Below, in pieces: positions 7,619 through 61,751 of a stretch of 64,000 nt of DNA (position 1 is the stretch's first letter; every line of letters begins with the position of its first letter). The translations under genes and the position numbers were made by a program. The DNA comes from Lachnospiraceae bacterium. GTDB taxonomy: Bacteria > Bacillota > Clostridia > Lachnospirales > Lachnospiraceae. The notes under the pieces are model-generated. The model saw nothing but the letters and a program-made list of their open reading frames with translations. It was not told the origin of the DNA and did no database searches. The stretch covers positions 54,786 through 118,785 of the forward strand of contig JBGVQN010000009.1 in NCBI GenBank assembly GCA_045127535.1, read 5' to 3'.

Positions 7619-7708
7619 AGGGAATTGCGAAATATAGTTATTGTAATGAATGCTTTAAAAACACAAATACTTCCCAAAGCTGATACGGACGCTGGTTTCG
7701 CAATGTCC
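7619..7708 (-). repeat. MITE-like palindromic intergenic repeat, minimal copy
   Basis: The termini are GGAATTGCGAA ... GGTTTCGCAATGTCC. The internal ACTTCCCAAAGCTGATA matches the TIR of the full copies. Confidence 0.6.
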
Positions 7709-7734
7709 TATTGGGATGTGCAGCAAGAGTAGTA

Positions 7735-8367
7735 TTATGCTTTCTGAGACGGATCAAAAGTCAGCAGCTCCTGTGCATAAGGCAGTGTCTCCACCCAGTC
7801 ACAGAAGGTGTGCCACTCAGCCAGCTTATGGTGTCGTCTGGCATGGTAAATATTGAACAATGTCTCATAATTAAAGGTACAGGTACGCATCTGGTTATAG
7901 CTGGTAGGCAGAAGCTGGATCATATCATACCAGTCCTCCTTAGACTTGCTTTCCAGATACCGCAGACGGATCACCTCTAACTGCTTTACAACCGTCTCCA
8001 TAAATTCATAGGTATCCGGTGTCATATGGTCACAGCTGAAATCCTCCATGGAAAATTCCTTGCTGTGGATCTTATGCATGGTGCTGGTAGAATTGGCAAC
8101 CGTAGCAACCTTATACGTATCATACTCCTTCCACCAGTAAAGGGGGCCTGTAATATCCACAGATACAAAAATCATACGCATATATTTTCTATGGTCACTT
8201 CCTGCACGGGCCAGACGGGCAGCCAGACTTAAATCATTGGGTCCCAACACATAGTTGCCCTCATCATCATAACTGCTGTCCATACGATCCCAGCTGTTCA
8301 TAGGATTTCTCGCCCCACGAATCGCATTCTCCAGATTCATCACCTGGTCACGCTCAATCTTTAACAT
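7735..8367 (-). CDS. ThyX-like (flavin-dependent thymidylate synthase fold) protein with divergent active-site motif
   Basis: In a by-eye alignment to ThyX, the ITG segment and the C-terminal N-x-x-x-L-x-N-[FI]...R...A-x-W block are recognisable. The canonical RHRx7S motif is not seen; the position reads W-K-E-Y-D-T-Y-K. An RBS, GGAGG, lies 5 nt before the start. Confidence 0.5.
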   Translation of the reverse strand: MLKIERDQVMNLENAIRGARNPMNSWDRMDSSYDDEGNYVLGPNDLSLAARLARAGSDHRKYMRMIFVSVDITGPLYWWKEYDTYKVATVANSTSTMHKIHSKEFSMEDFSCDHMTPDTYEFMETVVKQLEVIRLRYLESKSKEDWYDMIQLLPTSYNQMRTCTFNYETLFNIYHARRHHKLAEWHTFCDWVETLPYAQELLTFDPSQKA

Positions 8368-8805
8368 TGCAACCTCCTATACATACAGAGAAAATGACAC
8401 AGACACCCATGCCCCTTTCACTGTGTAATTCAAAACAATAGAAACCCCAAAAAAGGATCCTCTACTGCATTCCAAAACCATAAAAAGCCTGACAACTACA
8501 CACACTCACCAGACTCCACCCAATATCATACCATGTCTGCCCCCGTTTGTGTAAAAAAAATGCAGGCTTGTGCAAGGAATCTCTATTGTCAGACAGTGCC
8601 AGATTCGTTTATAATAATATCAAAATACAAGCATATGGAATCTGACATAGGATACTCCTGATACACCGGTGAGACCTCATGACACATCCAATGTCAGCAT
8701 TTTTAGAGATTTCGGGCATACTTACCGGCTAAAGCAAAACGTGTCCAGTGAAAAACAATTACCCCAGCCCGTAAGTCCGTTCTAAATCTCCTAAAGTGCA
8801 TCCAT

Positions 8806-9026
8806 AGACAATTATGAAACGATATTCAAAATCAGCTTTGGGAAGTATCTGCAAGCAAATATTTGCTAAGCAGGACTCTTGAAAACGCCGGCACTTTAAA
8901 TTTTGTGCTGTAGGCACAAAATTTATTAGTACCGCTGCGTTTTCACCGAAGCGAGAGCGTGTCCTGCGTGCAAATATTTGCTTGCAGATACTTCCCAAAG
9001 CGTCCGGTACCGAGTTGTGCAATTGC
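8806..9026 (+). repeat. MITE-like palindromic intergenic repeat, full copy
   Basis: Left TIR, CAATTATGAAACGATATTCAAAATCAGCTTTGGGAAGTATCTGCAAGCAAATATTTGC. Core, TAAGCAGGACTCTTGAAAACGCCGGCACTTTAAATTTTGTGCTGTAGGCACAAAATTTATTAGTACCGCTGCGTTTTCACCGAAGCGAGAGCG. Right TIR, ...GCAAATATTTGCTTGCAGATACTTCCCAAAGCGTCCGGTACCGAGTTGTGCAATTGCC. Confidence 0.8.
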
Positions 9027-9058
9027 CTGTCCATATGCCAAAATGAAAGGAGAAAAAT

Positions 9059-10189
9059 ATGCAGTATAGAGAGTTTGGTTCCACAGGTGAAAAGGTGTCT
9101 GCACTGGGGTACGGATGTATGAGACTTCCGTTGTTAGATCCAAAGGATGGTAAGTCCATTAATGAGGCAGAAGCCATCCGCATGATCCGCACCGCCATTG
9201 ATGCCGGTCTGAATTATGTAGATACCGCCTATCCATACCACGACGGTGAAAGCGAAAGACTGGTAGGCAAGGCATTAAAGGACGGGTATCGTGAAAGAGT
9301 CTTTCTGGCCACCAAGCTGCCAATGTGGATGGTACATAAGACAGAGGATTTTGATCTGTACTTAAATGAGCAGTTAGGAAAGTTAGACACAGACCACATA
9401 GATATGTACATGCTGCATGCCATGGACAAGAGCCGCTATGAGGAGATGTGCAAATATCATTTGACAGACAAGCTGACAGAAGCCAAGGCCTCCGGCAAGA
9501 TTCGTTATGCAGGATTTTCCTTCCATGATGATGCAGAGACCTTCCGCACCATCATTGACGCATATGACTGGGATTTCTGCCAGATTCAGATGAACTATAT
9601 TGATGTCAACAATCAGGCAACCATAGCAGGTATGGAGTATGCAGCGTCTAAGGGCATTGCAGTGATCATTATGGAGCCTCTGTTAGGAGGCAAGCTGGCA
9701 AATCCGCCAAAGCAGGTAGCCAAGGCGCTTTCTCCGGAAAAGACAGCAGTAGAATGGGCGCTGGATTTCCTCTGGAACCGTCCGGAGGTCAGTGTGATCT
9801 TGAGCGGTATGAGCGATATGCAGCAGACCATGGACAATATGCTTTATGCAGACCGCTCTGCAGCAGGCATGCTTTCTGATGCAGAGCTGGAGATGTTTGT
9901 CCAGGCCAAGGAGATCTACGATACCAAGGCAGTGGTGCCATGTACCAAGTGCCGCTACTGTATGCCATGTCCATTTGGACTGGATATCCCGGAATTGTTT
10001 GAGTCCTATAACCGTACTGCCACTCAAGGTATGAAGGAGGCACGCAAGCTGTATGACAGCATGGAGGTAAAGGCAGATGCCTGCCGCAAGTGCCACCGCT
10101 GTGAAAAAGAGTGTCCACAGCACATCAAGATCAGTGAAACTATGGAAGAACTGGCAGGTGTTTTTGCAGAGGAATCATGCTGTGACTAA
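9059..10189 (+). CDS. aldo/keto reductase fused to C-terminal 4Fe-4S ferredoxin-like domain
   Basis: An AKR N-terminus with a YDTAxxY-like motif, and two Cys clusters, CTKCRYCMPCP and CRKCHRCEKECP. An RBS, AAAGGAG, precedes the start. Confidence 0.8.
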   Translation: MQYREFGSTGEKVSALGYGCMRLPLLDPKDGKSINEAEAIRMIRTAIDAGLNYVDTAYPYHDGESERLVGKALKDGYRERVFLATKLPMWMVHKTEDFDLYLNEQLGKLDTDHIDMYMLHAMDKSRYEEMCKYHLTDKLTEAKASGKIRYAGFSFHDDAETFRTIIDAYDWDFCQIQMNYIDVNNQATIAGMEYAASKGIAVIIMEPLLGGKLANPPKQVAKALSPEKTAVEWALDFLWNRPEVSVILSGMSDMQQTMDNMLYADRSAAGMLSDAELEMFVQAKEIYDTKAVVPCTKCRYCMPCPFGLDIPELFESYNRTATQGMKEARKLYDSMEVKADACRKCHRCEKECPQHIKISETMEELAGVFAEESCCD

Positions 10190-10405
10190 AAGGTTTCAAA
10201 ATTGCCTGCAAAAAATCCTGATCATGATACAAAAAGAACCAGAAAGTGAAAATTTTATCATGAAAAAGACCAATTATCGTAAGAGAAGCGTAAAGATATT
10301 GTGTATATCCTATGCTAAAATTACCCTATATCAATAGAAGAAACAGATAGTTGCGTTTCATCACCACCTGGAAAAAGTATCAGTGATGTGATATAAGGAT
10401 AGCGC

Positions 10406-10843
10406 ATGGAGAAAGGCTCGGATGGGTATATGTCAATATTATTATGGGTGATGCTTGCCATGATGACCGTCATCGGTTATTTTTGCAACGGTGCAATTGG
10501 AAATCATGCACTGATTGGTAATTTTCTGGTTTCTGTAGTGCTGATTCTGGCATGGGGGTATTATATTGCTTTTGGAATAAAATCCAAATGTGGATATAAG
10601 ATCACACTGGGATATTGTTTTTTGATCTTTGCAGCAGCAATGATACAGCTTGTGTTGTCTTTCAATGACAGAAACAGCATTTTATGGACAGTCTGCAGCA
10701 TGTTGATTGCACCATTTCAAGGAATGCAATATATTGCCAGTTCTGCGCTGCAGTTTTATGCTGTGGTTGGAGTGGTGTCACTGACAGGAATAGCAGGCAG
10801 CATTTATAAACTGTGGAAAAAAGAGACAGATAAGAGACAATGA
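10406..10843 (+). CDS. small integral membrane protein, function unknown
   Basis: A 145-aa product with four predicted TM helices. It overlaps the downstream start. Confidence 0.45.
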   Translation: MEKGSDGYMSILLWVMLAMMTVIGYFCNGAIGNHALIGNFLVSVVLILAWGYYIAFGIKSKCGYKITLGYCFLIFAAAMIQLVLSFNDRNSILWTVCSMLIAPFQGMQYIASSALQFYAVVGVVSLTGIAGSIYKLWKKETDKRQ

Positions 10844-11634
10844 AAAAATTATTTTTATTTGATATTGACGGAACCATTGCCATTGACAATGACTTGTTAG
10901 ATGGAACAATGGATTTACTGAACTATATTGATGGAATTGGAGGAAAGGCAATTTATATTACCAATAATTCCACCAAAAGCAGAAAAGATTATATAGAAAA
11001 GTTTGCCTGCTGGAAAATTTCTGCGGCAGCAGATCAGTTTATTACGGCTTCTTATGCAACAGCAGTATATTTGCGGGAGCATCATATGCAGGATAAGATT
11101 TTTGTACTGGGAACGGCTTCTCTGGTGAAGGAGCTGAGAGAAGAAGGGTTTCTGGTGACAGAAGAGGCAGAGCCGGATGTGGCAGCTGTGCTGGTTGGAT
11201 TTGACAATGAACTGACCTACAGCAAAGTGGAAAAAGCCTGCCAATTGCTATTGACCCATCCGGATATGCCGTATCTGGCAACCAATCCGGATTTATGCTG
11301 TCCCACCAGTTTTGGCAGCGTGCCGGACTGCGGTGCGATCTGCAGGCTGTTAGAGTGTGCAGTAGGCAGACAACCAGTGTATCTTGGGAAACCAAGTCCC
11401 AATATTGTACAGCTTTGCCTGGAGCAGACAGGCTTTGCAGCAGAAGAAACATTGGTAGTAGGAGACCGGCTGTATACAGATATTGCCTGTGGATTGAATG
11501 CAGGAGTGGATACTGCAGTGGTATTTACAGGAGAAGCCAGACCAGAAGATTGTGTGGAGACAGAATATAAACCTACGTATGCATTTCCTACAGTAAGAGA
11601 GCTGTATGAATGGTGTTTCGAAGGAAAACTGTAG
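10840..11634 (+). CDS. HAD-IIA family hydrolase (NagD-like sugar-phosphatase)
   Basis: The N-terminus FLFDIDGT is HAD motif I, and the C-terminus VGDRLYTDI is motif IV. Confidence 0.7.
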   Translation: MKKLFLFDIDGTIAIDNDLLDGTMDLLNYIDGIGGKAIYITNNSTKSRKDYIEKFACWKISAAADQFITASYATAVYLREHHMQDKIFVLGTASLVKELREEGFLVTEEAEPDVAAVLVGFDNELTYSKVEKACQLLLTHPDMPYLATNPDLCCPTSFGSVPDCGAICRLLECAVGRQPVYLGKPSPNIVQLCLEQTGFAAEETLVVGDRLYTDIACGLNAGVDTAVVFTGEARPEDCVETEYKPTYAFPTVRELYEWCFEGKL

Positions 11635-11781
11635 CATCCACGTACTTATAAAAAGATATTCTGGGGAAAATCATCATACAGATAGGTCTGAAAAAATGGA
11701 ACCAAAAGAACTGCATCTGTATATACATAATTTTCTAAAAAAAGGCTATACTGATTCATAAATGTCCCTTTGGAGGAACTT

Positions 11782-12762: not shown

Positions 12763-12805
12763 TTGCTGCAGGAATCAGGCTTGACAGAAAACAGAATGGC
12801 TTTGA

Positions 12806-13843: not shown

Positions 13844-14163
13844 AAAAAACACTTCCTTTGTTAAAAAAATAACAATACAGGCTATAAAAAAGTACCACTG
13901 GGAATGACGGGGCACATTACCGTACATTTGTGGTACATTCCTGGTAATTTATCCGCAAAAAGCCATTTTTACAAAGGCCGGATACTATAAATTGCTGCAT
14001 GTTGTGACTTAGTGTAGCATAGGACAGCTGCCTTGGCAACTATTTTTTGGTAAAAATTGAAAAAATTTCGTCTGTTTTTTGTTAAAAGGTTAACAAAAAA
14101 ACCCATTCACAAGGACAGGTAATACAGCATAGACTAAAGCAAAGTGATGTCGCAGGTGGCTGT

Positions 14164-14808: not shown

Positions 14809-14920
14809 TTTCATGGAAAACATTGTATACTGAAACGGAGGGAATTACAAAAGCAGGGTATGTAAACGCTGCGTGAATAACCTTGAAGACTCTTTTGAAA
14901 GATACAGAGGAATCTATAAT

Positions 14921-15661
14921 ATGATAGATATGCACATTCATATCGTTCCAGGCATTGATGATGGTGCCAGAACAACAGAGGAAGCCCGCCGTATGCTGCT
15001 GCAGGCAGCAGATGGCGGTACCACAGGAATGATTGTGACCCCTCATTGTAATATAGAGGGGTATTTTGAAAATTTTGAAAGCCCCAGGTTAGAAGCGGCA
15101 TTTCAAAGCTTTGCTGAACTGGCAAAGCAGACGGTACCGAATATGAAGATTGGTTTTGGACAGGAAGTATACGGTACATTTGAGGCACCGGAGCTCATAC
15201 GGGAAGGGAGACTGCGTACTTTACATAACAGCAGATATGTATTAATGGAGTTTCCATTTGACGGCAGTTTTGGATACATGACGGAAATTCTCATGCGCAC
15301 CTGTGATTATGGATTTGTATCTGTGGTAGCACATCCGGAGCGATATGACGTGATACAGGAAGTACCATGGAAAGTAGAAGACTGGGTAGATGCAGGACTT
15401 TGCATTCAGGTGAATAAAGGCAGTATCCTGGGCCGTTTTGGTTCCAGACCCTATTATGCAGCAGAATATCTGCTGCAGCATGGACTGGTTCATCTGTCTG
15501 CCAGTGATGCCCACCGCACCAATACCCGGACTGCTTATTTAAATGAGCTTAGGAGCGTATTAAACCGAGATTATGGACGGGCTATTACACAGATGATGTT
15601 AGAGGAGAATCCTGACCGCATCTGGAATAATCAGGAGCTGTTATTGCCAAAGGATTTGTGA
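14921..15661 (+). CDS. CpsB/YwqE-family protein-tyrosine phosphatase (PHP domain)
   Basis: The N-terminus reads MIDMHIHIVPGIDDGA, which is a PHP-domain signature. An alternative start lies at 14873. Confidence 0.65.
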   Translation: MIDMHIHIVPGIDDGARTTEEARRMLLQAADGGTTGMIVTPHCNIEGYFENFESPRLEAAFQSFAELAKQTVPNMKIGFGQEVYGTFEAPELIREGRLRTLHNSRYVLMEFPFDGSFGYMTEILMRTCDYGFVSVVAHPERYDVIQEVPWKVEDWVDAGLCIQVNKGSILGRFGSRPYYAAEYLLQHGLVHLSASDAHRTNTRTAYLNELRSVLNRDYGRAITQMMLEENPDRIWNNQELLLPKDL

Positions 15662-15730
15662 TGATCCTGAAAATGTCCGGTAATGTGTTTCACAATTGCC
15701 TAATCCTTTATTAAAGTGAAAGGAAACAAC

Positions 15731-16687
15731 ATGAGAAAAGAATACAAAGTACCTTCCAGCGCAGGAAACCAGATGCTGCGTACAGTAATCTGGACTCCTG
15801 CAAAAAGACCCAAGGCAGCAGTGGTAATGCTGCACGGTATGCTTGAGCACATTGACCGTTATGAGGAATTTGCTCTGTATCTGTGTGACCAGGGGTATGC
15901 AGCTGCAGGTTATGACCAGCTGGGTCATGGAAAAACTGTCATGCATCAGAAAGATCTGGGCTTTTTTGCAGAAAAGCATGGAGAAAAGATTCTCATCCAG
16001 GATATACAGAGGGTGGTCTCCTGTACCAAAAAGTTGTTTCCAGGTGTCCCGGTAGTGTTGTTTGGACATAGCATGGGTTCCTTTTTTGTGCGGAAATATG
16101 TGACTGTTTATGGAAAGGAAATAGATGGTGCAGTATTTTGCGGAACCGGTTCCACACCTATGCCTGTCTTGCTGGCAGGACTTGCAGCAGCACGGTTTTT
16201 GAAAGTGGTGAAAGGGAGTCATTACCGCAGCAGCTTTTTGCACAATCAGGTATTTGAGGGGAACAACCGGCAGATTGAAAATCCCCAGACAGAGAAGGAC
16301 TGGCTGACCAAAGATCCGGACAAGCTTCGGGAAAATATGGAGGACCCTTATTGTAATTTCATGTTTACTGCCAGTGCATATGCAGATTTTATGAAAATTA
16401 TGATGGATCTGCAAAGAAAGAAGGGCCTGAGCCATATGCCAAAGGACTTGCCGATCCTTATGATTGCAGGGGGCCAGGACCCGGTGGGACATCAGGGAGA
16501 GGATGTGGCAGCGTTGTGTGATTTGTTCCGGGAGATCGGGATGGAGCAGGTAACCTTGATCCTCTGTGAAGAAGACAGGCATGAGATTTTAAATGAAACA
16601 AACAGGCAGGCCGTATACCGCCAGATTGATCAGTGGATGGATACGTTCCTGAAAGAAAAAGGTATTGCGGAAAGAGGTAACAGATGA
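15731..16687 (+). CDS. alpha/beta hydrolase (lysophospholipase/monoacylglycerol lipase-like)
   Basis: A GHSMGS nucleophile elbow is present. An RBS, AAAGGAAA, precedes the ATG at 15731. Confidence 0.7.
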   Translation: MRKEYKVPSSAGNQMLRTVIWTPAKRPKAAVVMLHGMLEHIDRYEEFALYLCDQGYAAAGYDQLGHGKTVMHQKDLGFFAEKHGEKILIQDIQRVVSCTKKLFPGVPVVLFGHSMGSFFVRKYVTVYGKEIDGAVFCGTGSTPMPVLLAGLAAARFLKVVKGSHYRSSFLHNQVFEGNNRQIENPQTEKDWLTKDPDKLRENMEDPYCNFMFTASAYADFMKIMMDLQRKKGLSHMPKDLPILMIAGGQDPVGHQGEDVAALCDLFREIGMEQVTLILCEEDRHEILNETNRQAVYRQIDQWMDTFLKEKGIAERGNR

Positions 16688-18252: not shown

Positions 18253-18386
18253 CCTTTTTTTAGGCAAAAAAAGGTAAGGTGTTTCACAATCGCTGTTTTC
18301 AAAAAAGAATAAAGGTTGACAAAATACGACACTGGTTATAATATATAGCTATCAGCATAAAAATATAACCAAAAGGGAATGATATA

Positions 18387-36029: not shown

Positions 36030-36305
36030 ACAGTCACATCTAAGGAAAGGTGATGAAGCAGAGGAGTACTGTTTGGAGGCGGACAGAGAGGTGGCCGGAT
36101 GTTGAGAGGCCATTACGTACAGAAGGATAGGAAGGTAGCTGCTGAACTGGATTTTTGAACGGCAAGACTCATTAGAGAATCCCGGTTAGTCCCCGTTATC
36201 GGTCACAAGGGAATCGGAGCAGCAGCTCCCGTTCTGAAATGAAGGTGGTACCGTGCATATGCGCCCTTTATGGAGATCATTCCATAAAGGGCTTTTTTAT
36301 TTTAT
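36030..36305 (+). ncRNA. T-box riboswitch leader (tRNA-Val-responsive) with terminator
   Basis: The T-box sequence AATGAAGGTGGTACCGTG is at 36238-36255. A terminator, GCGCCCTTTATGGA...TCCATAAAGGGC followed by TTTTTTATTTT, comes next. The position upstream of valS fits. Confidence 0.7.
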
Positions 36306-36491: not shown

Positions 36492-39143
36492 ATGGAGGAT
36501 ATGATGAAAGAATTAGAAAAAACATACAGCCCTGCTGATATAGAGGAGCGTCTGTATGAAAAGTGGTTGGACAAAAAGTATTTTCACGCAGAAGTAGATA
36601 GAAGCAAGAAGCCATTTACCATTGTAATGCCGCCGCCAAATGTAACCGGTCAGCTGCACATGGGTCATGCATTGGACAACACCATGCAGGACATTCTCTG
36701 CCGTTATAAGAGAATGCAGGGGTATAACGTATTATGGCAGCCAGGTACAGACCATGCAGCCATTGCCACAGAGGTAAAGGTCATTGACAAGCTGAAAAAA
36801 GAAGGCATTGATAAGAATGACATTGGACGTGAGAAGTTTTTAGAGCATGCCTGGGAGTGGAAGCGTGAGTACGGCGGAAGAATCATCAACCAGTTAAAGA
36901 AGTTAGGTTCTTCTGCAGACTGGGACAGAGAGCGTTTTACCATGGACGAGGGCTGCTCCAAGGCAGTAGAGGAAGTCTTTATCCGTCTGTATGAAAAAGG
37001 CTGGATCTACAAAGGCTCCCGTATCGTAAACTGGTGTCCTGTATGTAAGACCTCCATTTCTGATGCAGAGGTAGAGCATACAGAGCAGGCAGGCCATTTC
37101 TGGCATATTAAGTACCCGATCGTAGGGGAGGAAGGCAGATTCGTAGAGATCGCCACCACCAGACCGGAGACCATGCTTGGAGATACTGCAGTGGCAGTCA
37201 ATCCGGAGGATGACCGTTACAAGGATATCGTAGGCAAGATGCTGCTGCTGCCTCTGGTCAACAAGGAGATCCCGGTAGTGGCAGATCCATATGTAGACAA
37301 AGAGTTTGGAACCGGTTGTGTCAAGATCACCCCAGCCCATGATCCTAACGACTTTGAAGTAGGAAAGCGTCACAGCCTGCCGGAGATCAACATCATGAAT
37401 GATGATGCCACCATCAACAATCACGGCGGTAAATATGCAGGCATGGATCGTTACGAGGCAAGAAAGCTGATCGTACAGGAATTAGATGAGCTGGGCTTAC
37501 TGGTAAAGATCGAAGACCACGTACACAATGTAGGTACCCATGACCGTTGTAAGACCACCATTGAGCCACTGATCAAGCAGCAGTGGTTTGTAAAGATGGA
37601 TGAGATGATCAAGCCTGCTGTAGAGGCAGTAAAGTCCGGTGAGATCAAGCTGCTGCCGGAGCGCATGGACCGTACTTACTTTAACTGGACAGACAACATC
37701 CGTGACTGGTGTATTTCCAGACAGCTGTGGTGGGGACACAGGATCCCGGCTTACTATTGTAAGGATTGTGGTGAAATGGTTGTGTCCAGAGACGCAGTGA
37801 CGGTATGCCCTAAGTGCGGCAGCGTACACATGGAGCAGGATCCGGATACATTGGACACCTGGTTTTCTTCTGCACTGTGGCCATTCTCCACATTGGGCTG
37901 GCCGGAGCAGACAGAGGATCTGGATTACTTCTATCCGACAGACGTACTGGTAACCGGCTATGATATTATCTTCTTCTGGGTCATCCGTATGATCTTCTCC
38001 GGCTATGAGCAGACCGGTAAGGCGCCGTTCCATACGGTACTGTTCCATGGTCTGGTCAGAGACTCTCAGGGACGTAAGATGAGTAAGTCTCTGGGCAATG
38101 GTATCGATCCATTAGAGGTCATTGATAAATATGGTGCAGATGCCCTGCGTCTCACCCTGATTACCGGTAATGCACCAGGTAATGACATGCGTTTCTACTG
38201 GGAGAGAGTAGAAGCATCCCGTAACTTTGCCAACAAGCTGTGGAACGCATCCCGTTTCATTATGATGAACATGGAAAAGGCATCCTCAGACAATGTCACT
38301 CTGGCAGATCTGACCAACGCAGACAAGTGGATTCTGTCCAAGGCAAACCGTCTTGCCAAGGAAGTGACTGAAAATATGGACAAGTATGAAATGGGTATTG
38401 CTGTACAAAAGGTTTACGATTTTGTATGGGAAGAATTCTGCGACTGGTATATCGAGATGGTAAAGCCACGTCTGTGGAATGCAGAGGACAAGACCCAGGC
38501 AGCTGCCATCTGGACATTAAAGACTGTCCTGATCCAGTCCTTAAAGCTGCTGCACCCATTCATTCCATTTATTACAGAGGAGATCTTCTGCAACCTGCAG
38601 GATGCAGAGGAATCCATTATGATCTCTGAATGGCCGCAGTTCCAGAATGCATGGGACTTCGCCCAGGAGGAAAATGCAGTAGAGACCATCAAGGAAGCAG
38701 TACGCAGCATCCGTGCAGTACGTCTGTCCATGAATGTACCACCAAGCAAAAAGGCTACCATCTATGTAGTCAGCGAGCAGGACAAGGTACGTGAGATCTT
38801 TGAGACCTCCAAGGTATTCTTTGCACAGCTTGGTTCTGCAAGTGAGGTACTGGTACAGGCTGATAAGACCGGCATCGGGGAAGATGCAGTCTCTGCTGTG
38901 ACAGCAGATGCAGTGCTGTATATGCCTCTGGCAGAGCTGGTTGACATCTCCAAGGAGATCGAGCGCCTGCAGAAGGAAGCAGAAAAGCTGACCAAGGAGC
39001 TGGCACGTTCCAAGGGCATGTTAAGCAATGAGAAGTTTATCAGCAAGGCACCTGCTGCCAAGATCGCAGAGGAACAGGAGAAGCTGGCACGCTACGAAGC
39101 AATGATGGCCCAGGTACAGGAGAGACTGGAGGCACTGCAGTAA
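36492..39143 (+). CDS. valS: valine--tRNA ligase
   Basis: The class I HIGH motif PPNVTGQLHMGHA, KMSKS, and a C-terminal coiled coil. Alternative starts lie at 36501 and 36504. Confidence 0.9.
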   Translation: MEDMMKELEKTYSPADIEERLYEKWLDKKYFHAEVDRSKKPFTIVMPPPNVTGQLHMGHALDNTMQDILCRYKRMQGYNVLWQPGTDHAAIATEVKVIDKLKKEGIDKNDIGREKFLEHAWEWKREYGGRIINQLKKLGSSADWDRERFTMDEGCSKAVEEVFIRLYEKGWIYKGSRIVNWCPVCKTSISDAEVEHTEQAGHFWHIKYPIVGEEGRFVEIATTRPETMLGDTAVAVNPEDDRYKDIVGKMLLLPLVNKEIPVVADPYVDKEFGTGCVKITPAHDPNDFEVGKRHSLPEINIMNDDATINNHGGKYAGMDRYEARKLIVQELDELGLLVKIEDHVHNVGTHDRCKTTIEPLIKQQWFVKMDEMIKPAVEAVKSGEIKLLPERMDRTYFNWTDNIRDWCISRQLWWGHRIPAYYCKDCGEMVVSRDAVTVCPKCGSVHMEQDPDTLDTWFSSALWPFSTLGWPEQTEDLDYFYPTDVLVTGYDIIFFWVIRMIFSGYEQTGKAPFHTVLFHGLVRDSQGRKMSKSLGNGIDPLEVIDKYGADALRLTLITGNAPGNDMRFYWERVEASRNFANKLWNASRFIMMNMEKASSDNVTLADLTNADKWILSKANRLAKEVTENMDKYEMGIAVQKVYDFVWEEFCDWYIEMVKPRLWNAEDKTQAAAIWTLKTVLIQSLKLLHPFIPFITEEIFCNLQDAEESIMISEWPQFQNAWDFAQEENAVETIKEAVRSIRAVRLSMNVPPSKKATIYVVSEQDKVREIFETSKVFFAQLGSASEVLVQADKTGIGEDAVSAVTADAVLYMPLAELVDISKEIERLQKEAEKLTKELARSKGMLSNEKFISKAPAAKIAEEQEKLARYEAMMAQVQERLEALQ

Positions 39144-39158: not shown

Positions 39159-39360
39159 CGACTACCCGGACGGAGTTAGCCAGACTGGATGCATTTGCAC
39201 GCAAAACACGCTCTCGCTTCGGGAAGTACGCAGCGGTTCTAAGGCCGCAGACAGGCAAAATCAGTCGTAAGTAAACTTACGGCTGATTTCACCTGTCTGC
39301 GGCCTAAGAACCGGCGTCCTTCAGAGTTTTGTTTAGCAAAGGCAGCCAGCCTGGCTAACT
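39159..39360 (-). repeat. diverged variant of the repeat family containing a ~75-nt near-perfect palindrome
   Basis: CGCTCTCGCTTCGG...CGCAGCGG matches the reverse-complement core. Its own TIRs are GGAGTTAGCCAGACTGG and CCAGCCTGGCTAACTCC. The internal hairpin spans 39236-39311. Confidence 0.55.
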
Positions 39361-39633
39361 CCTGGGTATTGGTAAATCTCCAGGTGTATTTGTAAATGTG
39401 GAATGTGGTCGACTTAGCAGGAAACTGGTTGCTGCAGAGTGCAAAGTATATTTGCAAGCATGGAAATGCGTCTATGCGGGCAAGGCCTGTGAGCTGGTGC
39501 ATAAAGTGGACTGCAGTGTAGCATGGCAGTTGTGAATAAGAAGGTAGGGAAGCAGGTTTTCACGGGGGATTCGTATAAATGCGGAGCGTGGAGATCTGCT
39601 TTTTATATCGATGTTTTACAGAGTGTCAGGGAA

Positions 39634-39904
39634 GGTGTTTTGCAATCGACTATTCTCATATTTGAACAATAACGAAAGTCTGCTACGTATCAGCTTTGTG
39701 AAGTGCCTGTCAGAAAATGTTTTCTAAGCAGGCTCTTAAAAACGCCGGCACTTTAAATTTTGCACCGTAGGTGCAAAATTTATTAGTACCGCTGGGTTTT
39801 TACCGAAGCGAGAGCATGCAAACGTATCATAAATGATACGTCGCGTGCAAACATTTTCTGACAGGCACTTCACAAAGCGTCCGGTAACAAGTTGTGCAAT
39901 TGTC
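39634..39904 (+). repeat. MITE-like palindromic intergenic repeat, full copy
   Basis: It shares the core with 8806-9026. The central hairpin is TTTTGCACCGTAGGTGCAAAA. There is an extra CGTATCAT-aa-ATGATACG hairpin. The TIR reads CTTTGTGAAGTGCCTGTCAGAAAATGTTTT. Confidence 0.8.
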
Positions 39905-39930
39905 TATTTCAGATTAGTTGGAAGGAGAAG

Positions 39931-47997: not shown

Positions 47998-48189
47998 ATG
48001 AGCAAACCTATGATTCGAACTGGATTGATAATTGCGTTGATTACAGTTATGATGCTGTGTGCATGGTACTTTCTGCAAAGCGGCAAAAAGGCAGTCTACA
48101 CAGATGCAGTTCTGGTGCAGAACAATGCTCAGGTAGCAGAGGAAACCAAAGATTGTTTTCTGCTGCAGGAGGATGATACTTCTATATGA
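47998..48189 (+). CDS. possible small membrane protein upstream of spoVAA
   Basis: A 63-aa protein with one TM helix. Its stop overlaps the spoVAA start. Confidence 0.3.
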   Translation: MSKPMIRTGLIIALITVMMLCAWYFLQSGKKAVYTDAVLVQNNAQVAEETKDCFLLQEDDTSI

Positions 48190-48806
48190 GTGAAACATTA
48201 TATTTGAAACTGGAGCAAAATCCACAAGTGACCGCAGATTCTGTCCATATTTCAGACATCAGCGAAACCTGGTGCAAGGATAAGCACATCTTAGCCGAGT
48301 GCAGGGCAGTAAAGGTAAAAAATCTGAATCCAGGTCCCAAAAGCAGAACCATTTACTCTGCAATGGAGCTTGTACAGATGATTCAGGAGTCAGTGGAGGA
48401 TGTAGAGGTAACGGTGCTTGGAGAGCAGGATATCATTATTTCCCGCCATCCCGGTGAACAATGCAATCCAGTGTGGGAGTGGTGCAAGACCATTGGCATA
48501 TCCCTGGTGATCTTTTTTGGCTCTGCCTTTGCCATTATGACCTTTAACAATGACGTAGGGGTAAAAGACGTATTTGACGAGCTGCATGTATGGGTAATGG
48601 GCAGCGCATCAGAAGGCTTGTCTGCTCTGGAAATATCGTATACAGTAGGACTTGCAGTGGGGATCCTGGTGTTTTATAACCATTTCCGTAAAAAGACCAG
48701 AATTTCCGATCCTACCCCTCTGGAAGTGGAGATGCGACAGTATGAAACAGACGTCAATACTGCCATCATTCAGGAGGATTCCAGATTAAAGAAGTCAGGC
48801 AGTTGA
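48186..48806 (+). CDS. spoVAA: stage V sporulation protein AA
   Basis: The product appears collinear with B. subtilis SpoVAA in a by-eye comparison (AIMTFNNDV, SPLEVEM). Confidence 0.8.
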   Translation: MSETLYLKLEQNPQVTADSVHISDISETWCKDKHILAECRAVKVKNLNPGPKSRTIYSAMELVQMIQESVEDVEVTVLGEQDIIISRHPGEQCNPVWEWCKTIGISLVIFFGSAFAIMTFNNDVGVKDVFDELHVWVMGSASEGLSALEISYTVGLAVGILVFYNHFRKKTRISDPTPLEVEMRQYETDVNTAIIQEDSRLKKSGS

Positions 48807-49092
48807 TGTGAGTCTGCCACACCTATTGTAAAGTAAGAAAATGTTCTGAAAAATCAGCTTTGTATCGAAAAAACTGATAGGGCACAAGCTTGAATGCAGA
48901 ACATCTATCCCAAAATAGGGATTCAATGAGGATAGAAGGAACAATATCAGTTGGCATTTGATCAAACGATATACAGCAGGCTCAAATGAAAGGATCATGC
49001 AATTGTGACTTACACACAGATGAGTGTAATGGTAATGAACAAGCAGATATTAAAAAACAGATACTTAAGTCTATATACAAAGGGGAGTGCAT

Positions 49093-49509
49093 ATGCGGTG
49101 GATAATACTTTGGCTGATAGGGGTGTCATCTGGACTGGTAACTTCTGCCGGTGTGTTTGCACTGATTACGGTAATTGGCATCATTCCAAGACTGGCAGGT
49201 AAGAGCCGGACAGCTTCACGTGTCCGTATTTATGAATGGGCCATCATTTTAGGCGGCGTACTTGGAAACCTGCAGTATCTTCTGGGTACGAAGCTTCCTG
49301 TGGGACAGGTGGGTCTTGGGATGTTTGGATTGGGATGCGGCATCTTTGTCAGCTGTCTGGTCATGTCTCTGGCAGAGACATTGGATGTATTCCCGATCAT
49401 GATCCGCCGAACCAGAATGAAGGTGGGACTGCCCTGGCTGGTGCTTGCATTTGCTTTGGGCAAAAGTGTAGGGGCATTTCTGTTTTTCTGGTATGGATGG
49501 CATGTGTAG
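49093..49509 (+). CDS. spoVAB: stage V sporulation protein AB
   Basis: The product appears collinear with B. subtilis SpoVAB in a by-eye comparison (VIGIIPRL..., FPIMIRR). An RBS, AGGGGAG, lies 5 nt before the ATG. Confidence 0.8.
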   Translation: MRWIILWLIGVSSGLVTSAGVFALITVIGIIPRLAGKSRTASRVRIYEWAIILGGVLGNLQYLLGTKLPVGQVGLGMFGLGCGIFVSCLVMSLAETLDVFPIMIRRTRMKVGLPWLVLAFALGKSVGAFLFFWYGWHV

Positions 49510-49545
49510 GCTGGTCTGATTAATAGATTAAGGTGATTTAAGAAT

Positions 49546-49590
49546 CAGACACTTCACAAAGCGTCCAGTAACGTGTTTTTCGTAATTGTC
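49546..49590 (+). repeat. solo right-terminus fragment of the repeat
   Basis: CAGACACTTCACAAAGCGTCCAGTAACGTGTTTTTCGTAATTGTC. Confidence 0.6.
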
Positions 49591-49623
49591 TATAAAAAAT
49601 AATATAATGAGAGGAGACACAGT

Positions 49624-50094
49624 ATGAATCAGCAGGAAAGCAAGCAGAAGCTTGCAGAAGAATACAACGCTTACATCAAAGCAGTCACACCCACATTCAG
49701 TACAGCCAAAAATATGTTTCGGGCTTTCTGGACAGGCGGTGTGGTCTGTGTCATTGGGCAGGCACTGAACAACCTGTTTACAGGCATGGGGCTGGAGAAA
49801 AAGGATGCGTCTGCCTGGACATTGCTGGTGCTGATCTTTGTGGCCATTGTACTGACTGGCTTTAATCTGTTCAGCAAGATTGCAAAGTATGCAGGTGCAG
49901 GCGTATTGGTGCCCATTACTGGTTTTGCCAATGGTGTGGCTTCCCCTGCCATAGAGTATAAGAAAGAGGGATGGGTGTTTGGCGTAGGCTGCAAGATCTT
50001 TACCATTGCAGGGCCGGTGATCTTGTATGGAATCATTACCAGCTGGGTGTTGGGGGTGATCTGTTGGGTGTTGCAGATGATGGGAGTGGCGTGA
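49624..50094 (+). CDS. spoVAC: stage V sporulation protein AC
   Basis: A SpoVAC/SpoVAEB-family membrane protein with GVLVPITGFANGVASPAIEYKKEG. An RBS, GAGAGGAG, precedes the start. Confidence 0.8.
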   Translation: MNQQESKQKLAEEYNAYIKAVTPTFSTAKNMFRAFWTGGVVCVIGQALNNLFTGMGLEKKDASAWTLLVLIFVAIVLTGFNLFSKIAKYAGAGVLVPITGFANGVASPAIEYKKEGWVFGVGCKIFTIAGPVILYGIITSWVLGVICWVLQMMGVA

Positions 50095-50402
50095 GGCTAC
50101 TCCTGTTTGCGTTTGCTGGTACATTTTTGGGGCATTATACAGCATAAATACAAAACAAAATGGCTCAAAAATATAAAATAAAACACATCAAAAAACCGGA
50201 TTTGCTGATGGTAATTACTGGTGGCAATATGGCATATACGAGACCGGATGGTGTGAAGATCATACCAATCGGGTGTCTGAAAGACTAGTAACAGGACAGA
50301 GGGAACTGGGTAAAATACGGAAAATGTGAAAAATGCAGAAAAAGTCGCTCATCTTTTTGTGATATACTTCAAAAAGTCGCTCATTTTTTTGTATATTGTA
50401 TA

Positions 50403-50508
50403 GGTAATTGCGGAACGGTATTCCATATCAGATTTGAGAAGTATTTGTAAGAAAATATTTTCTTACAGATACTTCTCAAAGCGTCCGTTCAGATGTTTCG
50501 TAATTACC
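50403..50508 (+). repeat. core-less copy of the repeat (left and right TIR fused into one long hairpin)
   Basis: GGTAATTGCGGAACGGTATTCCATATCAGATTTGAGAAGTATTTGTAAGAAAATATTTTCTTACAGATACTTCTCAAAGCGTCCGTTCAGATGTTTCGTAATTACC. The central 42 nt form a perfect palindrome. Confidence 0.75.
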
Positions 50509-51015
50509 TAATATTGTATAAAGAAGGGAGTGTGCGTATGGGCGAAATATATTTAAAACGTAAAGTGAATACGTTTTTGCTGAAGGATTATTTGAATGAA
50601 CCATAACTGCCTACAAGCCGTAGGCTGTATGAGATTGTATCTGTTAGCGGTTGCAGTTTTTATGAAAGACATGGCTTGCATAGAGCAGAAATGGCTGGTG
50701 GAGCTTGGCAAAAATGAATGATGTGCAGAAAAAATATAGATAAATGGTATTTTTTACAAAATTGTGCTATAATGAAAAAGGGTCATATATGAGCTATTTT
50801 GGTTCAAAAAGCAAAAAAAGGATAATATATTATCCTTATCAGCAGGAGGAAATATGTTTGAGCAGCTGAAATTTCCTAGTGAAATTGCAAAAGATGTTGC
50901 TGTAAAAGAAAAAAATGTCCATTTTAAAAAGATATAAAAATTTGTAGAGAACATAGGATCGTATTGATTGAAATGGAATCAATGAACCGACTAAAAAATG
51001 ATTTAAAAATGTTTT

Positions 51016-55233: not shown

Positions 55234-55348
55234 GGAGGAAAGGTACAATAACTTGGGATTGATTGCAGCCGGGAATTGTGATAGTATGTATACGTTGGTG
55301 TTTGTACAAGATGGAAATACCATTTATGTAGATTGGGGAGAAAATACA

Positions 55349-56704: not shown

Positions 56705-56747
56705 GAAAAAGTATGGGAAGCTCCTTTCTTTGAACGGGAACAATTTA

Positions 56748-56989
56748 GGCAATTGCGAAACTCTTTACCGGACGTTTTGCGAAGTGCTTGTCAGAAAATA
56801 TTTTCACGCGACGTATCATTTATGATACGTTTGGCGCGCTCTCGCTTCGGTAAAAACGCAGTGGTACTAATAAATTTTGCACCTGTGGCACAAAATTTAA
56901 AGTACTGGCGTTTTTAAGAGCCTGCTTAGAAAACATGTTCTGACAGACATTTCACAAAGCTGGTACGAAACCTAGTTTCGCAATTATCT
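56748..56989 (-). repeat. MITE-like palindromic intergenic repeat, full copy, reverse orientation
   Basis: It is the reverse complement of the 39634-39904 type. The termini are GGCAATTGCGAAACTC ... AGTTTCGCAATTATC. The central hairpin is TTTTGCACCTGTGGCACAAAA. Confidence 0.8.
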
Positions 56990-57120
56990 AAGCATGAACA
57001 ACAAAAGTACTCGTAGATCTTTCTCTGTGTTTATGAATAATGGGAAAGAGGACGACAAACACGGATATTCTGGAAATATGCGGCAGAAAAATACGAAGAA
57101 CCTTGAGGTTTTGGTGAACT

Positions 57121-58560: not shown

Positions 58561-58651
58561 AGCCTTGCAACCGTCCGAGATGATAGAAAAGCTATAGGTA
58601 TAAGACCTGCAGCTTTCTATAGAAAACCCAAGTGATTGAGAAACGTTGGAT

Positions 58652-58693
58652 CAGACGCTTCACAAAACGTCCGTCATGTGTTTCACAATTACC
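58652..58693 (+). repeat. solo right-terminus fragment of the repeat
   Basis: CAGACGCTTCACAAAACGTCCGTCATGTGTTTCACAATTACC. Confidence 0.6.
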
Positions 58694-58708
58694 TGTGGGA
58701 ACAGTTAA

Positions 58709-58948
58709 ACAATTGCGAAGCGGTATTCAATATCAGCTTTGGGAAGTATCTGTAAGAAAATGTTTTCTAAGCAGGACTCTTGAAAACGCCGGTACTTTAA
58801 ATTTTGCGCCACAGGCGCAAAATTTATTAGTACCGCTGCGTTTTCACCGAAGCGAGAGCGGGTCAAACGTATCATAAATAATACGTCGCGTAAAAACATT
58901 TTCTTACAGATACTTCCCAAAGCGTCCGTTCACGTGTTTCGCAATTGC
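58709..58948 (+). repeat. MITE-like palindromic intergenic repeat, full copy
   Basis: The termini are CAATTGCGAAGCGG ... GTGTTTCGCAATTGC. The central hairpin is TTTTGCGCCACAGGCGCAAAA. TIR, CTGTAAGAAAATGTTTTC / AAAACATTTTCTTACAG. Confidence 0.85.
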
Positions 58949-58983
58949 TTAATGGAAAAAGTATTTGAAAGGAACAAAAGGTC

Positions 58984-59889
58984 ATGAGCAGAAAGGTATT
59001 GGTAACTGGAGGAACTGTATTTGTCAGCAGGTATGTGGCAGAGTATTTTGCCGGTCAGGGAGATCAGGTATATGTATTAAACCGCAACAGCAGACCCCAG
59101 TCTCCCGGTGTGACTTTGATTGAGGCAGACCGGAGTCAGTTAGGAGATGTGTTAAAGGGATATGACTTTGATGCAGTATTGGATATTACTGCATATACAA
59201 AAGAGGACGTAGCACATCTGCTGGATGCGTTGGACAGTGTGGGACAGTATATTTTCATCAGCTCCAGTGCAGTATATCCGGAAACACTGCCCCAGCCTTT
59301 TACTGAGGAGCAGGTATGCGGCCCCAATGCAGTATGGGGTGCATATGGTACCAATAAATTGGAGGCTGAACAGTACCTGTCAGAGCGGGTACCGCAGGCG
59401 TACATTCTCAGACCTCCTTATCTGTATGGCCCTATGCAGAATCTGTACCGGGAAGGACTGCCCTTTGACTGCGCAGAACAGAACCGTCCCTTTTACCTGC
59501 CGGGAGATGGCAGCATGCCGCTGCAGTTTTTCCATGTAGAGGATCTGTGCCGGTTTATGGAATGTCTGTTGGACAAGCAGCCAGAGCAGCGGATCTGGAA
59601 TGTGGGAAATCCAGAGATCGTGGATATCCGTCAGTGGGTAACCTTGTGCTATGAAGCAGTAGGTGTCACGCCGGAGTTTGTATCAGTAGATCAGACCCAT
59701 GGACAGAGAAGCTATTTCTGCTTCCATGATTATGGATATCAGCTGGATGTGACAAAGCAGCAGGCGCTGATGCCGGAGGTAAAGCCTCTGGCAGAGGGAT
59801 TAAAGGAATCCTATGCATGGTATCAGGTACATAAGGATTCTGTAGTGAAAAAACCTTATCTGGAATATATTGATACAGTGTTGAGATAA
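58984..59889 (+). CDS. NAD-dependent epimerase/dehydratase family protein (SDR)
   Basis: The N-terminus VLVTGGTVFVSRYVAEYF is a GxxGxxG-like Rossmann motif. A YxxxK context is present. Confidence 0.7.
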   Translation: MSRKVLVTGGTVFVSRYVAEYFAGQGDQVYVLNRNSRPQSPGVTLIEADRSQLGDVLKGYDFDAVLDITAYTKEDVAHLLDALDSVGQYIFISSSAVYPETLPQPFTEEQVCGPNAVWGAYGTNKLEAEQYLSERVPQAYILRPPYLYGPMQNLYREGLPFDCAEQNRPFYLPGDGSMPLQFFHVEDLCRFMECLLDKQPEQRIWNVGNPEIVDIRQWVTLCYEAVGVTPEFVSVDQTHGQRSYFCFHDYGYQLDVTKQQALMPEVKPLAEGLKESYAWYQVHKDSVVKKPYLEYIDTVLR

Positions 59890-59897
59890 TCAGTCAT

Positions 59898-59940
59898 CCC
59901 CATATCCCCTTTTCAAAAGAGGGGATATGGGGATTTTTAT
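59898..59940 (+). terminator. rho-independent terminator
   Basis: A perfect 13-bp stem, CCCCATATCCCCT / AGGGGATATGGGG, with a 9-nt loop, then ATTTTTAT. Confidence 0.7.
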
Positions 59941-60475
59941 GTGATGCGTCCATGGCAGGAGCGGATCAGACAGGAGCATGGTACAAGATCATCCATTGCT
60001 TTTGTATGTATTTCCTGTTACACTGTACTTGCAGCTGCCTGCTGTGTGGTAAGCAGCACAGTGCGCCAGGGTGTCCCAAAGCGTATTCTGCGGCAGTCTG
60101 TATACGCAGGTTCGAGTCCTGCCCGAAAGAGTCCGGGGAAAGCATGCTTTTATTGCCCAAGCCGGATTCAGATCGGCCAAGTGGTTTTGGATAGCCGGAA
60201 ACGGCAGCAAGTATTTATGATCAAACCCTAAATCATCAGGTATGGGCATTTCCTTCTGTCGCTGACAGAGGGGATGTCCATGCCACGGAATATCTGCCTT
60301 GTCCTAAGGAGGATACCGGATGGGAAATGGGCAGGAGCGCCTGACTGCAAATACTCTCTGTGGGAGATCCTGCAAAGAGCTTGCAGCAGGCTTCTGCTGC
60401 GGCTCTCATTCTGAATCCTTTGGCCGCAGATATTCCGGAAAGATGAGGGATCAGATGAAGTGGGGAGGAACCAAG

Positions 60476-61576
60476 ATGAAGACAATTATTACTGAAAACC
60501 AAAGAGGTCTTTTATTTAAAAATGGCAGACTGATCAAATTATTAGAGCCGGGAGCCTATCATACCTTTGGAAACAGCCGCATTGAGGTGGTCGATACCAA
60601 TCAGGAGGTCTGTTCAGACAGCTGTGATCTGGAAAGTCTGCTGCAGAATTCTGACATTGCTGCCCGGACTGTGGCAGTAGAGGTGTCTGATGAACAGCTG
60701 GCCATTCATTTTGTCAATGGCAATTTCAGGGAGTGTCTCACTGCAGGAAAGTATGCCTTTTGGTCTGTCTCAGAAAAGCATACTTTTTTATTGGCAGATA
60801 TTTCTGCGCCTGAGGTGTCTGAGGAGATTCCGGAGTACATCCTCCATTGTGTGCCGGAGCGCCATTACACCAAGGTTTCTGTAGAAGAATACCAAAAAGC
60901 CAGATTGTATTACAATAAACGCTTTGTGCGGCTGTTGGATGCAGGTACCTATTATTTTTGGAAGAACCACATTCAGGTGGATGCAGAGCTTGTGGATACC
61001 AGACTGATCCAGATGGACATAACCGGTCAGGAGGTATTGACCAAGGACAAAGTAGCAGTGCGGATCAATTTTGTGTGCCATTACCGGATCACAGATTATG
61101 TCAAGATCGTAACAGAAATAGATGATTTTAAGGGACAGATGCATGTGGCAGCTCAGCTGGCGCTTCGGGAGTACATAGGCAAGTATAGCATTGATGAGAT
61201 CCTGGATAACAAGGAGCAGCTGTCTCAGTATGTATTTGAAAAGTTAAAGGAGAAGGAAAATCAGTTTTACATTGAGCTGGCAGATGCAGGCATTCGGGAT
61301 ATTATCCTGCCGGGAGAGGTGCGGGAAATCATGAACACAGTCCTGCTGGCAGAAAAGCGTGCCCAGGCCAATGTGATCACCCGCAGGGAAGAAGTGGCGT
61401 CCACCCGTTCTCTTTTAAATACAGCCAGACTGATGGATGAAAACAAGACCCTGTATCAGTTAAAGGAGTTAGAGTATATTGAACGTATCTGCGAAAATGT
61501 AGGCAGCATCCATGTCACCGGCGGCGGAGATCTGCTGACCCAGCTTATGAGCATGATACAGAAACCCAAAGAATAA
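60476..61576 (+). CDS. SPFH/band-7 domain protein with triplicated N-terminal beta-hairpin segment
   Basis: The RBS GGGGAGGAA lies 5 nt before the ATG. Three tandem copies of an x-G-x-L-x-x-L-x-PG-x-Y-x-F segment occur, then an SPFH core reading VAVRINFVCHYRI...AQLALREYIGKYSIDEIL. Confidence 0.6.
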   Translation: MKTIITENQRGLLFKNGRLIKLLEPGAYHTFGNSRIEVVDTNQEVCSDSCDLESLLQNSDIAARTVAVEVSDEQLAIHFVNGNFRECLTAGKYAFWSVSEKHTFLLADISAPEVSEEIPEYILHCVPERHYTKVSVEEYQKARLYYNKRFVRLLDAGTYYFWKNHIQVDAELVDTRLIQMDITGQEVLTKDKVAVRINFVCHYRITDYVKIVTEIDDFKGQMHVAAQLALREYIGKYSIDEILDNKEQLSQYVFEKLKEKENQFYIELADAGIRDIILPGEVREIMNTVLLAEKRAQANVITRREEVASTRSLLNTARLMDENKTLYQLKELEYIERICENVGSIHVTGGGDLLTQLMSMIQKPKE

Positions 61577-61606
61577 AAATACCAGGTGTGTCCTGACAAA
61601 ATCCAT

Positions 61607-61662
61607 AAACAGGATGAATTTGTAAACTCGTTTACAGATTCATCCTGTTTCTTGCTTTTCTG
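61607..61662 (+). terminator. rho-independent terminator
   Basis: A 20-bp stem, AAACAGGATGAATTTGTAAA / TTTACAGATTCATCCTGTTT, then CTTGCTTTTCTG. Confidence 0.55.
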
Positions 61663-61680
61663 AGATCTTAGAACCTCTGC

Positions 61681-61751
61681 GATTTCACCGAAGTGGGAGC
61701 GAGTCAAACGTGTCCTTACGACACGTTGCGTCAAACAATCCACTCATTGCC
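61681..61751 (+). repeat. degenerate partial copy of the repeat
   Basis: TTCACCGAAGTGGGAGCGAGTCAAACGTGTCCTTACGACACGTT...CATTGCC is a core-to-right-end remnant. Confidence 0.45.

Follow-up and report, generated by a model that had tools for sequence, protein, structure and literature searches.

Correia elements of Neisseria (NEMIS) are intergenic MITEs (miniature inverted-repeat transposable elements) of 100–160 bp whose terminal inverted repeats (TIRs) fold into long hairpins; they are very dense in their genomes, lack a transposase of their own and are often co-transcribed with the neighbouring genes, the RNA hairpin being processed. ERIC/IRU, BOX and the bcr repeats of the Bacillus cereus group are imperfect palindromes conserved across related species, which vary in a modular way by internal indels, lie in transcribed intergenic DNA and have predicted stable RNA structures with compensated changes. 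Here we describe a repeat family which is, in kind, a bacterial MITE like these, found in a stretch of 64,000 nucleotides (“the window”) from a Lachnospiraceae bacterium (contig JBGVQN010000009.1 of assembly GCA_045127535.1, positions 54,786–118,785 of the forward strand). We consider it probable, at roughly 0.8, that these repeats derive, as copies or as remnants, from a non-autonomous DNA transposon of about 225–245 bp, a “foldback”-type MITE.

The family is set apart from the Correia, ERIC, BOX and bcr elements by an identifiable IS1182-like parent insertion sequence (IS), by target-site duplications of 8–11 bp and by an interior junction conserved across genera. For Correia elements, the duplicated target is TA and no parent IS has been identified, whereas the window family has 8–11-bp duplications and a matching IS1182-like IS; its three-way-junction core is conserved across genera, and there is no sequence similarity between the two. 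ERIC/IRU, BOX and bcr come from other phyla and differ in sequence, while ERIC and BOX have neither demonstrated target duplications nor a parent IS, both of which are present here. As regards the IS1182 family (ISs with DUF772 transposases), the candidate parent IS has a single open reading frame (ORF) of 485 aa, TIRs and variable duplications of 10–12 bp, and the MITE has the same 16-nt termini as this candidate; the point of difference is the divergent transposase of the candidate parent (64 bits against a cut-off of 270). Full-text searches of the literature turned up no account of MITEs from Lachnospiraceae or Clostridia.

Self-comparison of the window revealed families of direct and inverted repeats at the places where an initial annotation, made from the letters alone, had proposed a MITE-like family, and the family is real there, far beyond chance. 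A profile built from the four full copies of the window recovers these with nhmmer at 8793–9036(+), 39653–39917(+), 56734–57003(−) and 58695–58958(+), with E-values of 1e-78 to 1e-91, and adds eight partial copies (4756–4808, 7652–7717, 15667–15707, 39193–39340(−), 49546–49593, 50400–50512, 58651–58696, and 61668–61739). The 16-nt terminus TAGGYAATTGYGAAAC occurs 19 times in the window at ≤3 mismatches, compared with 2.1 ± 1.6 times in dinucleotide shuffles. The whole tally comprises four full copies (225–246 bp), one variant whose outer stem is different, three short two-ended copies, about seven solo ends and one degenerate core; about 15 of these loci adjoin unrelated genes, and more copies lie at other loci (L026–L029). 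The resulting density of about one per 5 kb is high, as had been remarked, but Correia and REP elements reach a density of the same order in their hosts. The copies on which the argument mainly draws are the following:

8805–9029, + strand: full copy without the extra hairpin; termini 8805–8820 and 9014–9029, core 8867–8969, inner arms complementary at 32/32 positions; within the 5′ untranslated region (UTR) of a gene for an aldo/keto reductase (start 9059), 3′ of a promoter-like site at 8586–8615.
39663–39906, + strand: full copy, extra hairpin present and left terminus degenerate; core 39724–39826, arms complementary at 30/30 positions; immediately 5′ of the next ORF's ribosome-binding site.
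56746–56990, − strand: full copy in reverse orientation; core 56827–56929; 41 nt past the trkA stop and 130 nt ahead of trkH.
58706–58951, + strand: full copy; core 58768–58870, inner arms complementary at 31/31 positions; within the 5′ UTR of a gene for an epimerase (start 58984).
39159–39360, − strand: variant copy with the same three-way-junction core (39199–39335, covariance-model score 72 bits), another tip hairpin, another outer stem and no IS-type termini; begins 16 nt past the valS stop.
50401–50510, + strand: core-less two-ended copy, the left and right arms fused into one hairpin.

A full copy begins on the outside with a 16-nt terminus; inward follow about 14 nt not shared by the left and right arms, a perfect stem of about 30 bp and the core. 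Full and two-ended copies have the inverted repeat TAGGYAATTGCGAAAC as their terminus on either side; the TIRs had been recognised before, but the true termini reach 4 nt further out (TAGG...CCTA) than was then proposed. Within the differing 14-nt segment, the right arm carries GCGTCCGG. The inner arms of 30–32 bp are 100% complementary in three full copies, and all differences between copies are compensated on the opposite arm. Each long copy folds to one long hairpin, which in one copy reaches −118 kcal/mol (z = −14). The element size is 110–246 bp, and the element is non-coding: only spurious read-through ORFs cover it, among them those at 8759–9034, 58705–58920, 39239–39502 and 61456–61743, which had rightly been interpreted in this way and run on the minus strand. 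Consensus scans found no internal promoter or terminator in the element; promoters sit upstream.

The core represents a three-way junction of about 100 nt, closed by helix Pa. A linker UCUK leads to a long arm formed by Pb (GAAAACGC/GCGUUUUC) and then Pc (CGGUAC/GUACCG), with a CU bulge, a U–U mismatch and, at its end, a tip hairpin that varies; next come the invariant CCGAA and the mini-hairpin GC[GNRA]GC, before the chain rejoins Pa. In three of the four long window copies, the 3′ strand of Pa bears a small extra hairpin. The sequences CCGAAGCGAGAGCG and CGCTCTCGCTTCGG, which had been taken for a palindrome of the core, are instead one conserved motif read in copies of opposite orientation.

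The transposon reading is carried in the first place by target-site duplications. A perfect 8-bp duplication, ATATTGTA, lies at 50393–50400 and 50511–50518 around the core-less copy 50401–50510. Three further examples come from elsewhere: L026 has a duplication of ACAGGAAGTGA (11/11), its element being located between a TTGACA-17-TATAAT promoter and the ribosome-binding site; L027 has AAGCATTG(A/C), 8–9 bp; and L017 has a decayed duplication AGACTGACAGG/AGACTGATAAG (9/11). The copy at 58706–58951 is bordered by a decayed duplication of about 10–11 bp (TGGGAACAGT/TGGAAAAAGT). An apparent 15-bp duplication at L028 was not counted because it needs one indel and two mismatches. The loci L026–L029 were recovered by searching a protein database with translations of the repeat, and three public “proteins” of 123–134 aa (P0001–P0003) are translated MITE copies, i.e., spurious gene calls. 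Public short-read contigs of the host (Logan; L020–L025 and L151–L153) that carry window genes end inside MITE copies, with breakpoints such as one lying 81 nt ahead of the epimerase start and another about 380 nt past spoVAC. This is expected of a high-copy repeat in assembly, so it points to a high copy number in the host.

The second line of evidence is the IS. When viral contigs (IMG/VR) were scanned with a 15-mer of the terminus, at least 120 loci matched, a number which by a rough estimate chance alone could give. Among the 120 matches listed, however, about 50 are the outermost end of one IS family, each with a different flank, and for this reason these cannot be attributed to chance. 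The IS measures 1727–1796 bp (about 1.75 kb), contains a single 485-aa ORF and ends in TAGGTAATTGCGAAAC on the left and GTTTCGCAAACGCCTA on the right. The MITE ends match the left IS end at 15–16/16; the right IS end, on which the search placed no condition, agrees with the MITE right ends at 14/16, and the right end of L017 has the 14 nt GTTTCGCAAACGCC in common with it. Eight IS copies have perfect duplications of 10, 10, 10, 10, 10, 11, 11 and 12 bp in A/T-rich targets. IS copies located in viral contigs include the following:

IS copies: L100 (1409–3163), L081, L088, L103, L116, L120, L124 and L136.

The N-terminus of the IS transposase belongs to Pfam DUF772 (2.5e-12, 47 bits against a cut-off of 23), and its C-terminal part resembles the NCBIfam family IS1182 (1.3e-17, 63.9 bits). 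Dozens of copies of this IS occur in IMG/VR contigs, many of which break at IS ends. Plasmids coding for homologues of the transposase, full length or in pieces, come from Roseburia sp. 831b (89% identical), Agathobacter rectalis (83%, fragmentary), Clostridium felsineum (71%) and Butyrivibrio proteoclasticus (64%). Both IS ends are found on the plasmid of Roseburia sp. 831b, NZ_CP135163.1 (L150), whose record annotates no transposase there, the sole coding sequence touching the match overlapping it by 12 nt under the name “hypothetical protein”. As had been claimed, no transposase was found in the window: tblastn of the IS transposase against it gave no homologue, and a Pfam scan, which covered 20 flanking ORFs and left the other window ORFs outside, gave ordinary genes or no Pfam match. 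The MITE-like, non-autonomous interpretation of the initial annotation is thus backed by target-site duplications and by an IS with matching termini, as is its expectation that a related IS with the same TIRs might be found.

We conclude that the MITE and the ~1.75-kb IS stand in the classical relationship of a MITE to its parent IS, the presence and activity of this IS in the host being presumed. A transposase of this family, encoded elsewhere in the genome, would bind the termini and move the element in trans. Insertions would settle in A/T-rich spacers at gene borders, often between the promoter and the ribosome-binding site, so that many copies would share a transcript with the adjacent gene. 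Decay or deletion would have produced the solo arms and the core-less copies. MITE and IS have only their termini in common, not the interior, and a covariance-model search found no core inside the IS in 100 of the 120 viral loci listed; hence, the transposase presumably does not need the core. With the core pattern and the arm pattern, the viral contigs gave nothing or a chance match. A phage or plasmid origin was rejected since blastn of a full copy against PLSDB plasmids and phage records gave no match.

Several observations count against this explanation. The IS1182 score lies below the curated NCBIfam cut-off of 270, so the family assignment is approximate and denotes a divergent relative. 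The IS is seen in viral contigs and plasmids and is not placed in the MITE host genome, which is represented by contigs of ≤ ~10 kb. Several window copies, the older ones, have no recognisable duplication, and no empty site was recovered, the public contigs with the flanking genes ending within repeats. The MITE duplications (8, 8–9, 11, and ~11 bp) are shorter on average than the 10–12 bp of the eight IS copies, although in this small sample the two ranges overlap. Finally, the core elements at L001, L002, L004, L005, L011, L014 and L019 have no recognisable IS-type termini, and elements of this sort could be something other than decayed MITEs.

Paired arms may also be spread in another way, known for REPIN and REP-like sequences, in which inverted doublets of a ~50-bp unit are moved as single-stranded hairpins by a domesticated HUH transposase (RAYT or IS200–IS605-type). 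Hallmarks of REPINs and REPs include a flanking RAYT gene and a short GC-rich palindrome bearing a GTAG or CGTC tag. The window family shares with REPINs the hairpin-forming inverted doublets, the abundant singletons and the compensated arm differences: its solo arms of about 45–50 nt all begin near ACAGAYACTTC, its doublets form perfect hairpins, both strands fold equally, and the right arm has a CGTC-containing motif (GCGTCCG). Still, we regard such an origin as very unlikely because the insertion of REPINs and of IS200/IS605 is not known to make a target duplication, whereas duplications of 8–11 bp are found here, and because REPINs need a Y1/HUH transposase, while the termini of the window family are those of a DDE-type IS, not of a Y1 transposase element. 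No RAYT-like gene was seen near any copy.

The interior of this MITE is a conserved three-way junction, not an arbitrary filler, and the junction core is shared with other genomes, a feature which goes beyond the initial annotation. A scan of a genome collection with a degenerate core pattern gave only five loci (L001–L005), all in metagenome-assembled genomes (MAGs) of Lachnospiraceae or Eubacterium; a metagenome scan added the core loci L011, L014, L017 and L019 together with duplicates of L003 and L005. At these loci, the junction nucleotides are nearly invariant, and the helices differ yet still pair, while the outer stems are largely diverged and retain only an A/T-rich AATAT-like box beside the junction. 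A covariance model built from 11 copies matches six cores in the window and finds a very diverged second copy in L003, in which the mini-hairpin Pd is GU[GCAA]AC: the GNRA loop is kept, and the closing pairs have changed from GC/GC to GU/AC with compensation. All loop variants of the mini-hairpin (GAGA, GGGA, GCGA, and GCAA) fit GNRA, and a tandem 5′-GA/5′-GA occurs in the tip hairpin of several copies. The locus L017 combines IS-type termini, an 11-bp duplication and the core, so the composite element exists in at least two lineages.

Pairing was assessed in a structural alignment of 16 sequences, which was made by hand, padded with N and freed of the tip hairpin, the MAFFT alignments being out of register in the variable stems. 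In this alignment, 92% of cells pair, changes on both sides occur in 12/23 pairs, and covariation is present in all three helices; as controls, 0/500 shuffles reach the observed values, and slid partners pair at 28–47%. Another indication of conservation is given by L002 (4541–4667) and L005 (6589–6711), two different Lachnospiraceae MAGs representing two genera. In each of them, the core directly follows the stop of a glycogen phosphorylase gene, the two genes being orthologues (73% aa identity), and has the same orientation; the downstream genes differ, and only the core aligns in the surrounding non-coding DNA. A retained old insertion is more likely here than two independent hits. We infer that the core is kept by selection.

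These features raise the question of whether the repeats might primarily represent structured-RNA genes or cis-elements (small RNA, ribozyme or regulatory leader) that are multi-copy by chance and not transposable. Covariation in all three helices speaks for this, as do the GNRA-type loop maintained through four variants with a compensated closing pair, the tandem 5′-GA/5′-GA of the tip hairpins, the same site after orthologous phosphorylase genes in two genera, and eight independent 5′ UTR copies, all of which are sense to the downstream gene. Opposed to it are the target-site duplications and the termini identical to IS ends, the unrelated nature of the downstream genes (aldo/keto reductase, epimerase, TrkH, Rce1-like, hydrolase, ComM-like, and SpoVAC), the existence of core-less and solo copies, the mixed orientation to transcription without a G–U strand bias, and the lack of any matching Rfam family. 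We therefore find it improbable that structured RNA accounts for the family; it fails as a sole explanation but may describe the MITE-borne core.

An Rfam match, which would have spoken against the novelty claimed by the initial annotation, was not found for the repeats, whether for copies inside the window or for copies from elsewhere. The only gathering-level Rfam match in the window is a T-box leader (RF00230, 101.6 bits) at 36044–36271, upstream of valS (36492–39143; Pfam tRNA-synt_1 and Val_tRNA-synt_C) and unrelated to the repeats; six diverse copies searched by E-value gave sub-threshold noise from microRNA and small-RNA hairpins. A riboswitch or gene-specific leader was ruled out, the flanking genes being unrelated, both orientations occurring, and copies being present also at gene 3′ ends. 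A hammerhead-like junction, an integron attC site and a plasmid single-strand origin (CS-6 TAGCGA) were considered and dismissed by inspection, as the junction sequences, the positions of the conserved elements and the tip loop's variability are at odds with these.

As for the role of the core within the MITE, we lean slightly towards its acting as RNA, the fold working once it is transcribed, for example, in processing or stability of the transcript or in the binding of a factor. Possibly, it acts instead as folded single-stranded DNA during replication or transposition. A number of facts make us cautious about an RNA role. Copies at gene 3′ ends mostly run antisense (in the window past valS and trkA, elsewhere past phosphorylase, rplA, cmk and dnaJ). 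With flanks read by eye, about 10 core copies lie sense and about 7 antisense to the neighbouring transcript. Both strands fold equally well, so the core gives no strand signal, and 5 G–U pairs stand against 12 A–C pairs, i.e., G–U on the other strand. The hand-made alignment was fitted to the proposed structure and leans towards it. Template-switch correction of quasi-palindromes, a known replication mechanism, could keep the arms paired without selection; it would account for the pairing but not for the conserved unpaired nucleotides of the junction. A more far-reaching proposal, which we regard as rather doubtful, is that the core represents an undescribed functional RNA (e.g., protein-binding or self-processing) which predates the current burst of transposition, has been retained at fixed sites in several Lachnospiraceae genera, such as the one past the glycogen phosphorylase gene, and is spread here by the MITE into many 5′ UTRs as a mobile module of structured RNA.

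A conserved structured core that is absent from the IS, together with the frequent siting in transcribed 5′ UTRs and the varying duplication length (8, 9, and 11 bp), would also suit a spread of the type of short interspersed elements, via an RNA intermediate, where the core would serve as a recognition site for reverse transcriptase and the duplications would result from target-primed insertion. However, the DDE-type IS itself gives variable duplications of 10–12 bp, which explains the variation, and the window family has perfect TIRs, no 3′ tail and both orientations. No reverse transcriptase was present among the ORFs scanned. Of all the alternatives, we give this one the least credence.

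The family matters in several respects. It fragments short-read assemblies of this gut Clostridia lineage, and translations of its copies now stand as false “proteins” in public databases. Through its copies, an insert of about 250 nt that folds strongly and contains a perfect 30-bp duplex comes to lie between the promoters and ribosome-binding sites of housekeeping genes, and such inserts are likely to affect the expression of these genes. The link to an IS1182-like IS, unannotated in one plasmid record, provides a testable pair of transposase and substrate. The junction, which is conserved between genera but missing from the IS, is a candidate for a structured motif of RNA or DNA; the interest of the family would rise if the core were a functional RNA that the MITE disperses.

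The remaining members of the family in the window are short or degraded. The list of copies in the initial annotation was incomplete: the terminus scan added those at 4734–4803 and 10193–10208 and the weak one at 39637–39652; the solo terminus it had placed at 18271–18293 is present but weak. The region 61681–61751, which had been regarded as another solo terminus, is instead the 3′ half of a degenerate core with its extra hairpin.

3887–3912: solo end, about 30 nt 5′ of the start codon at 3944.
4734–4803, strand unassigned: short two-ended copy; weak left terminus 4734–4749 (3 mismatches), arm 4756–4803.
7618–7710, strand unassigned: degenerate core-less two-ended copy, directly 3′ of an intrinsic-terminator-like hairpin at 7591–7608.
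10193–10208: solo terminus (2 mismatches), just 3′ of the reductase gene.
15667–15702: solo right arm with a perfect terminus, between the ORFs 14873–15661 and 15716–16687.
18271–18293: weak solo end, 78% identical to the reference solo end and absent at ≤3 mismatches.
39637–39652: weak solo end from the terminus scan.
49546–49592: solo right arm of about 47 nt, 5′ of spoVAC.
58651–58695: solo right arm about 45 nt long, directly adjoining the 58706 full copy.
61631–61739, + strand: degenerate core (covariance-model match 61631–61711, 24 bits).

The degenerate core at 61631–61739 retains the 3′ half (TTAGAACC..CCGAAGTGGGAGCG) and the extra hairpin, its 5′ half being replaced by an unrelated hairpin at 61593–61664. 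The latter is an inverted repeat with 35-bp arms, 83% complementary, directly 3′ of a Band_7 gene. The TGA stop of the ORF 3944–4744 falls inside the weak MITE terminus 4734–4749, and an insertion at 4734 may have supplied the final codons and the stop of this ORF.

Two arrangements of copies were observed in addition. The spoVA genes are split, with spoVAA/AB/AC and spoVAD/AE lying 11.8 kb apart (48186–50094 and 61909–63335). The block between the halves comprises genes for a PnuC-like transporter, a YgjP-like protein, an inositol monophosphatase, TrkA, TrkH, the epimerase and a Band_7 protein; it is bounded by the MITE copies 50401–50510 and 61631–61739, and two full copies lie inside. The split may represent a repeat-associated insertion or rearrangement. 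Head-to-head pairs, in which a diverged or variant copy on the minus strand lies 130–300 nt 5′ of a canonical copy on the plus strand, occur in two unrelated genomes: L003, 3669–3762(−) with 3889–4013(+), and the window, 39159–39360(−) with 39663–39906(+). A promoter-like TGGTATAGT is located between the two copies of L003.

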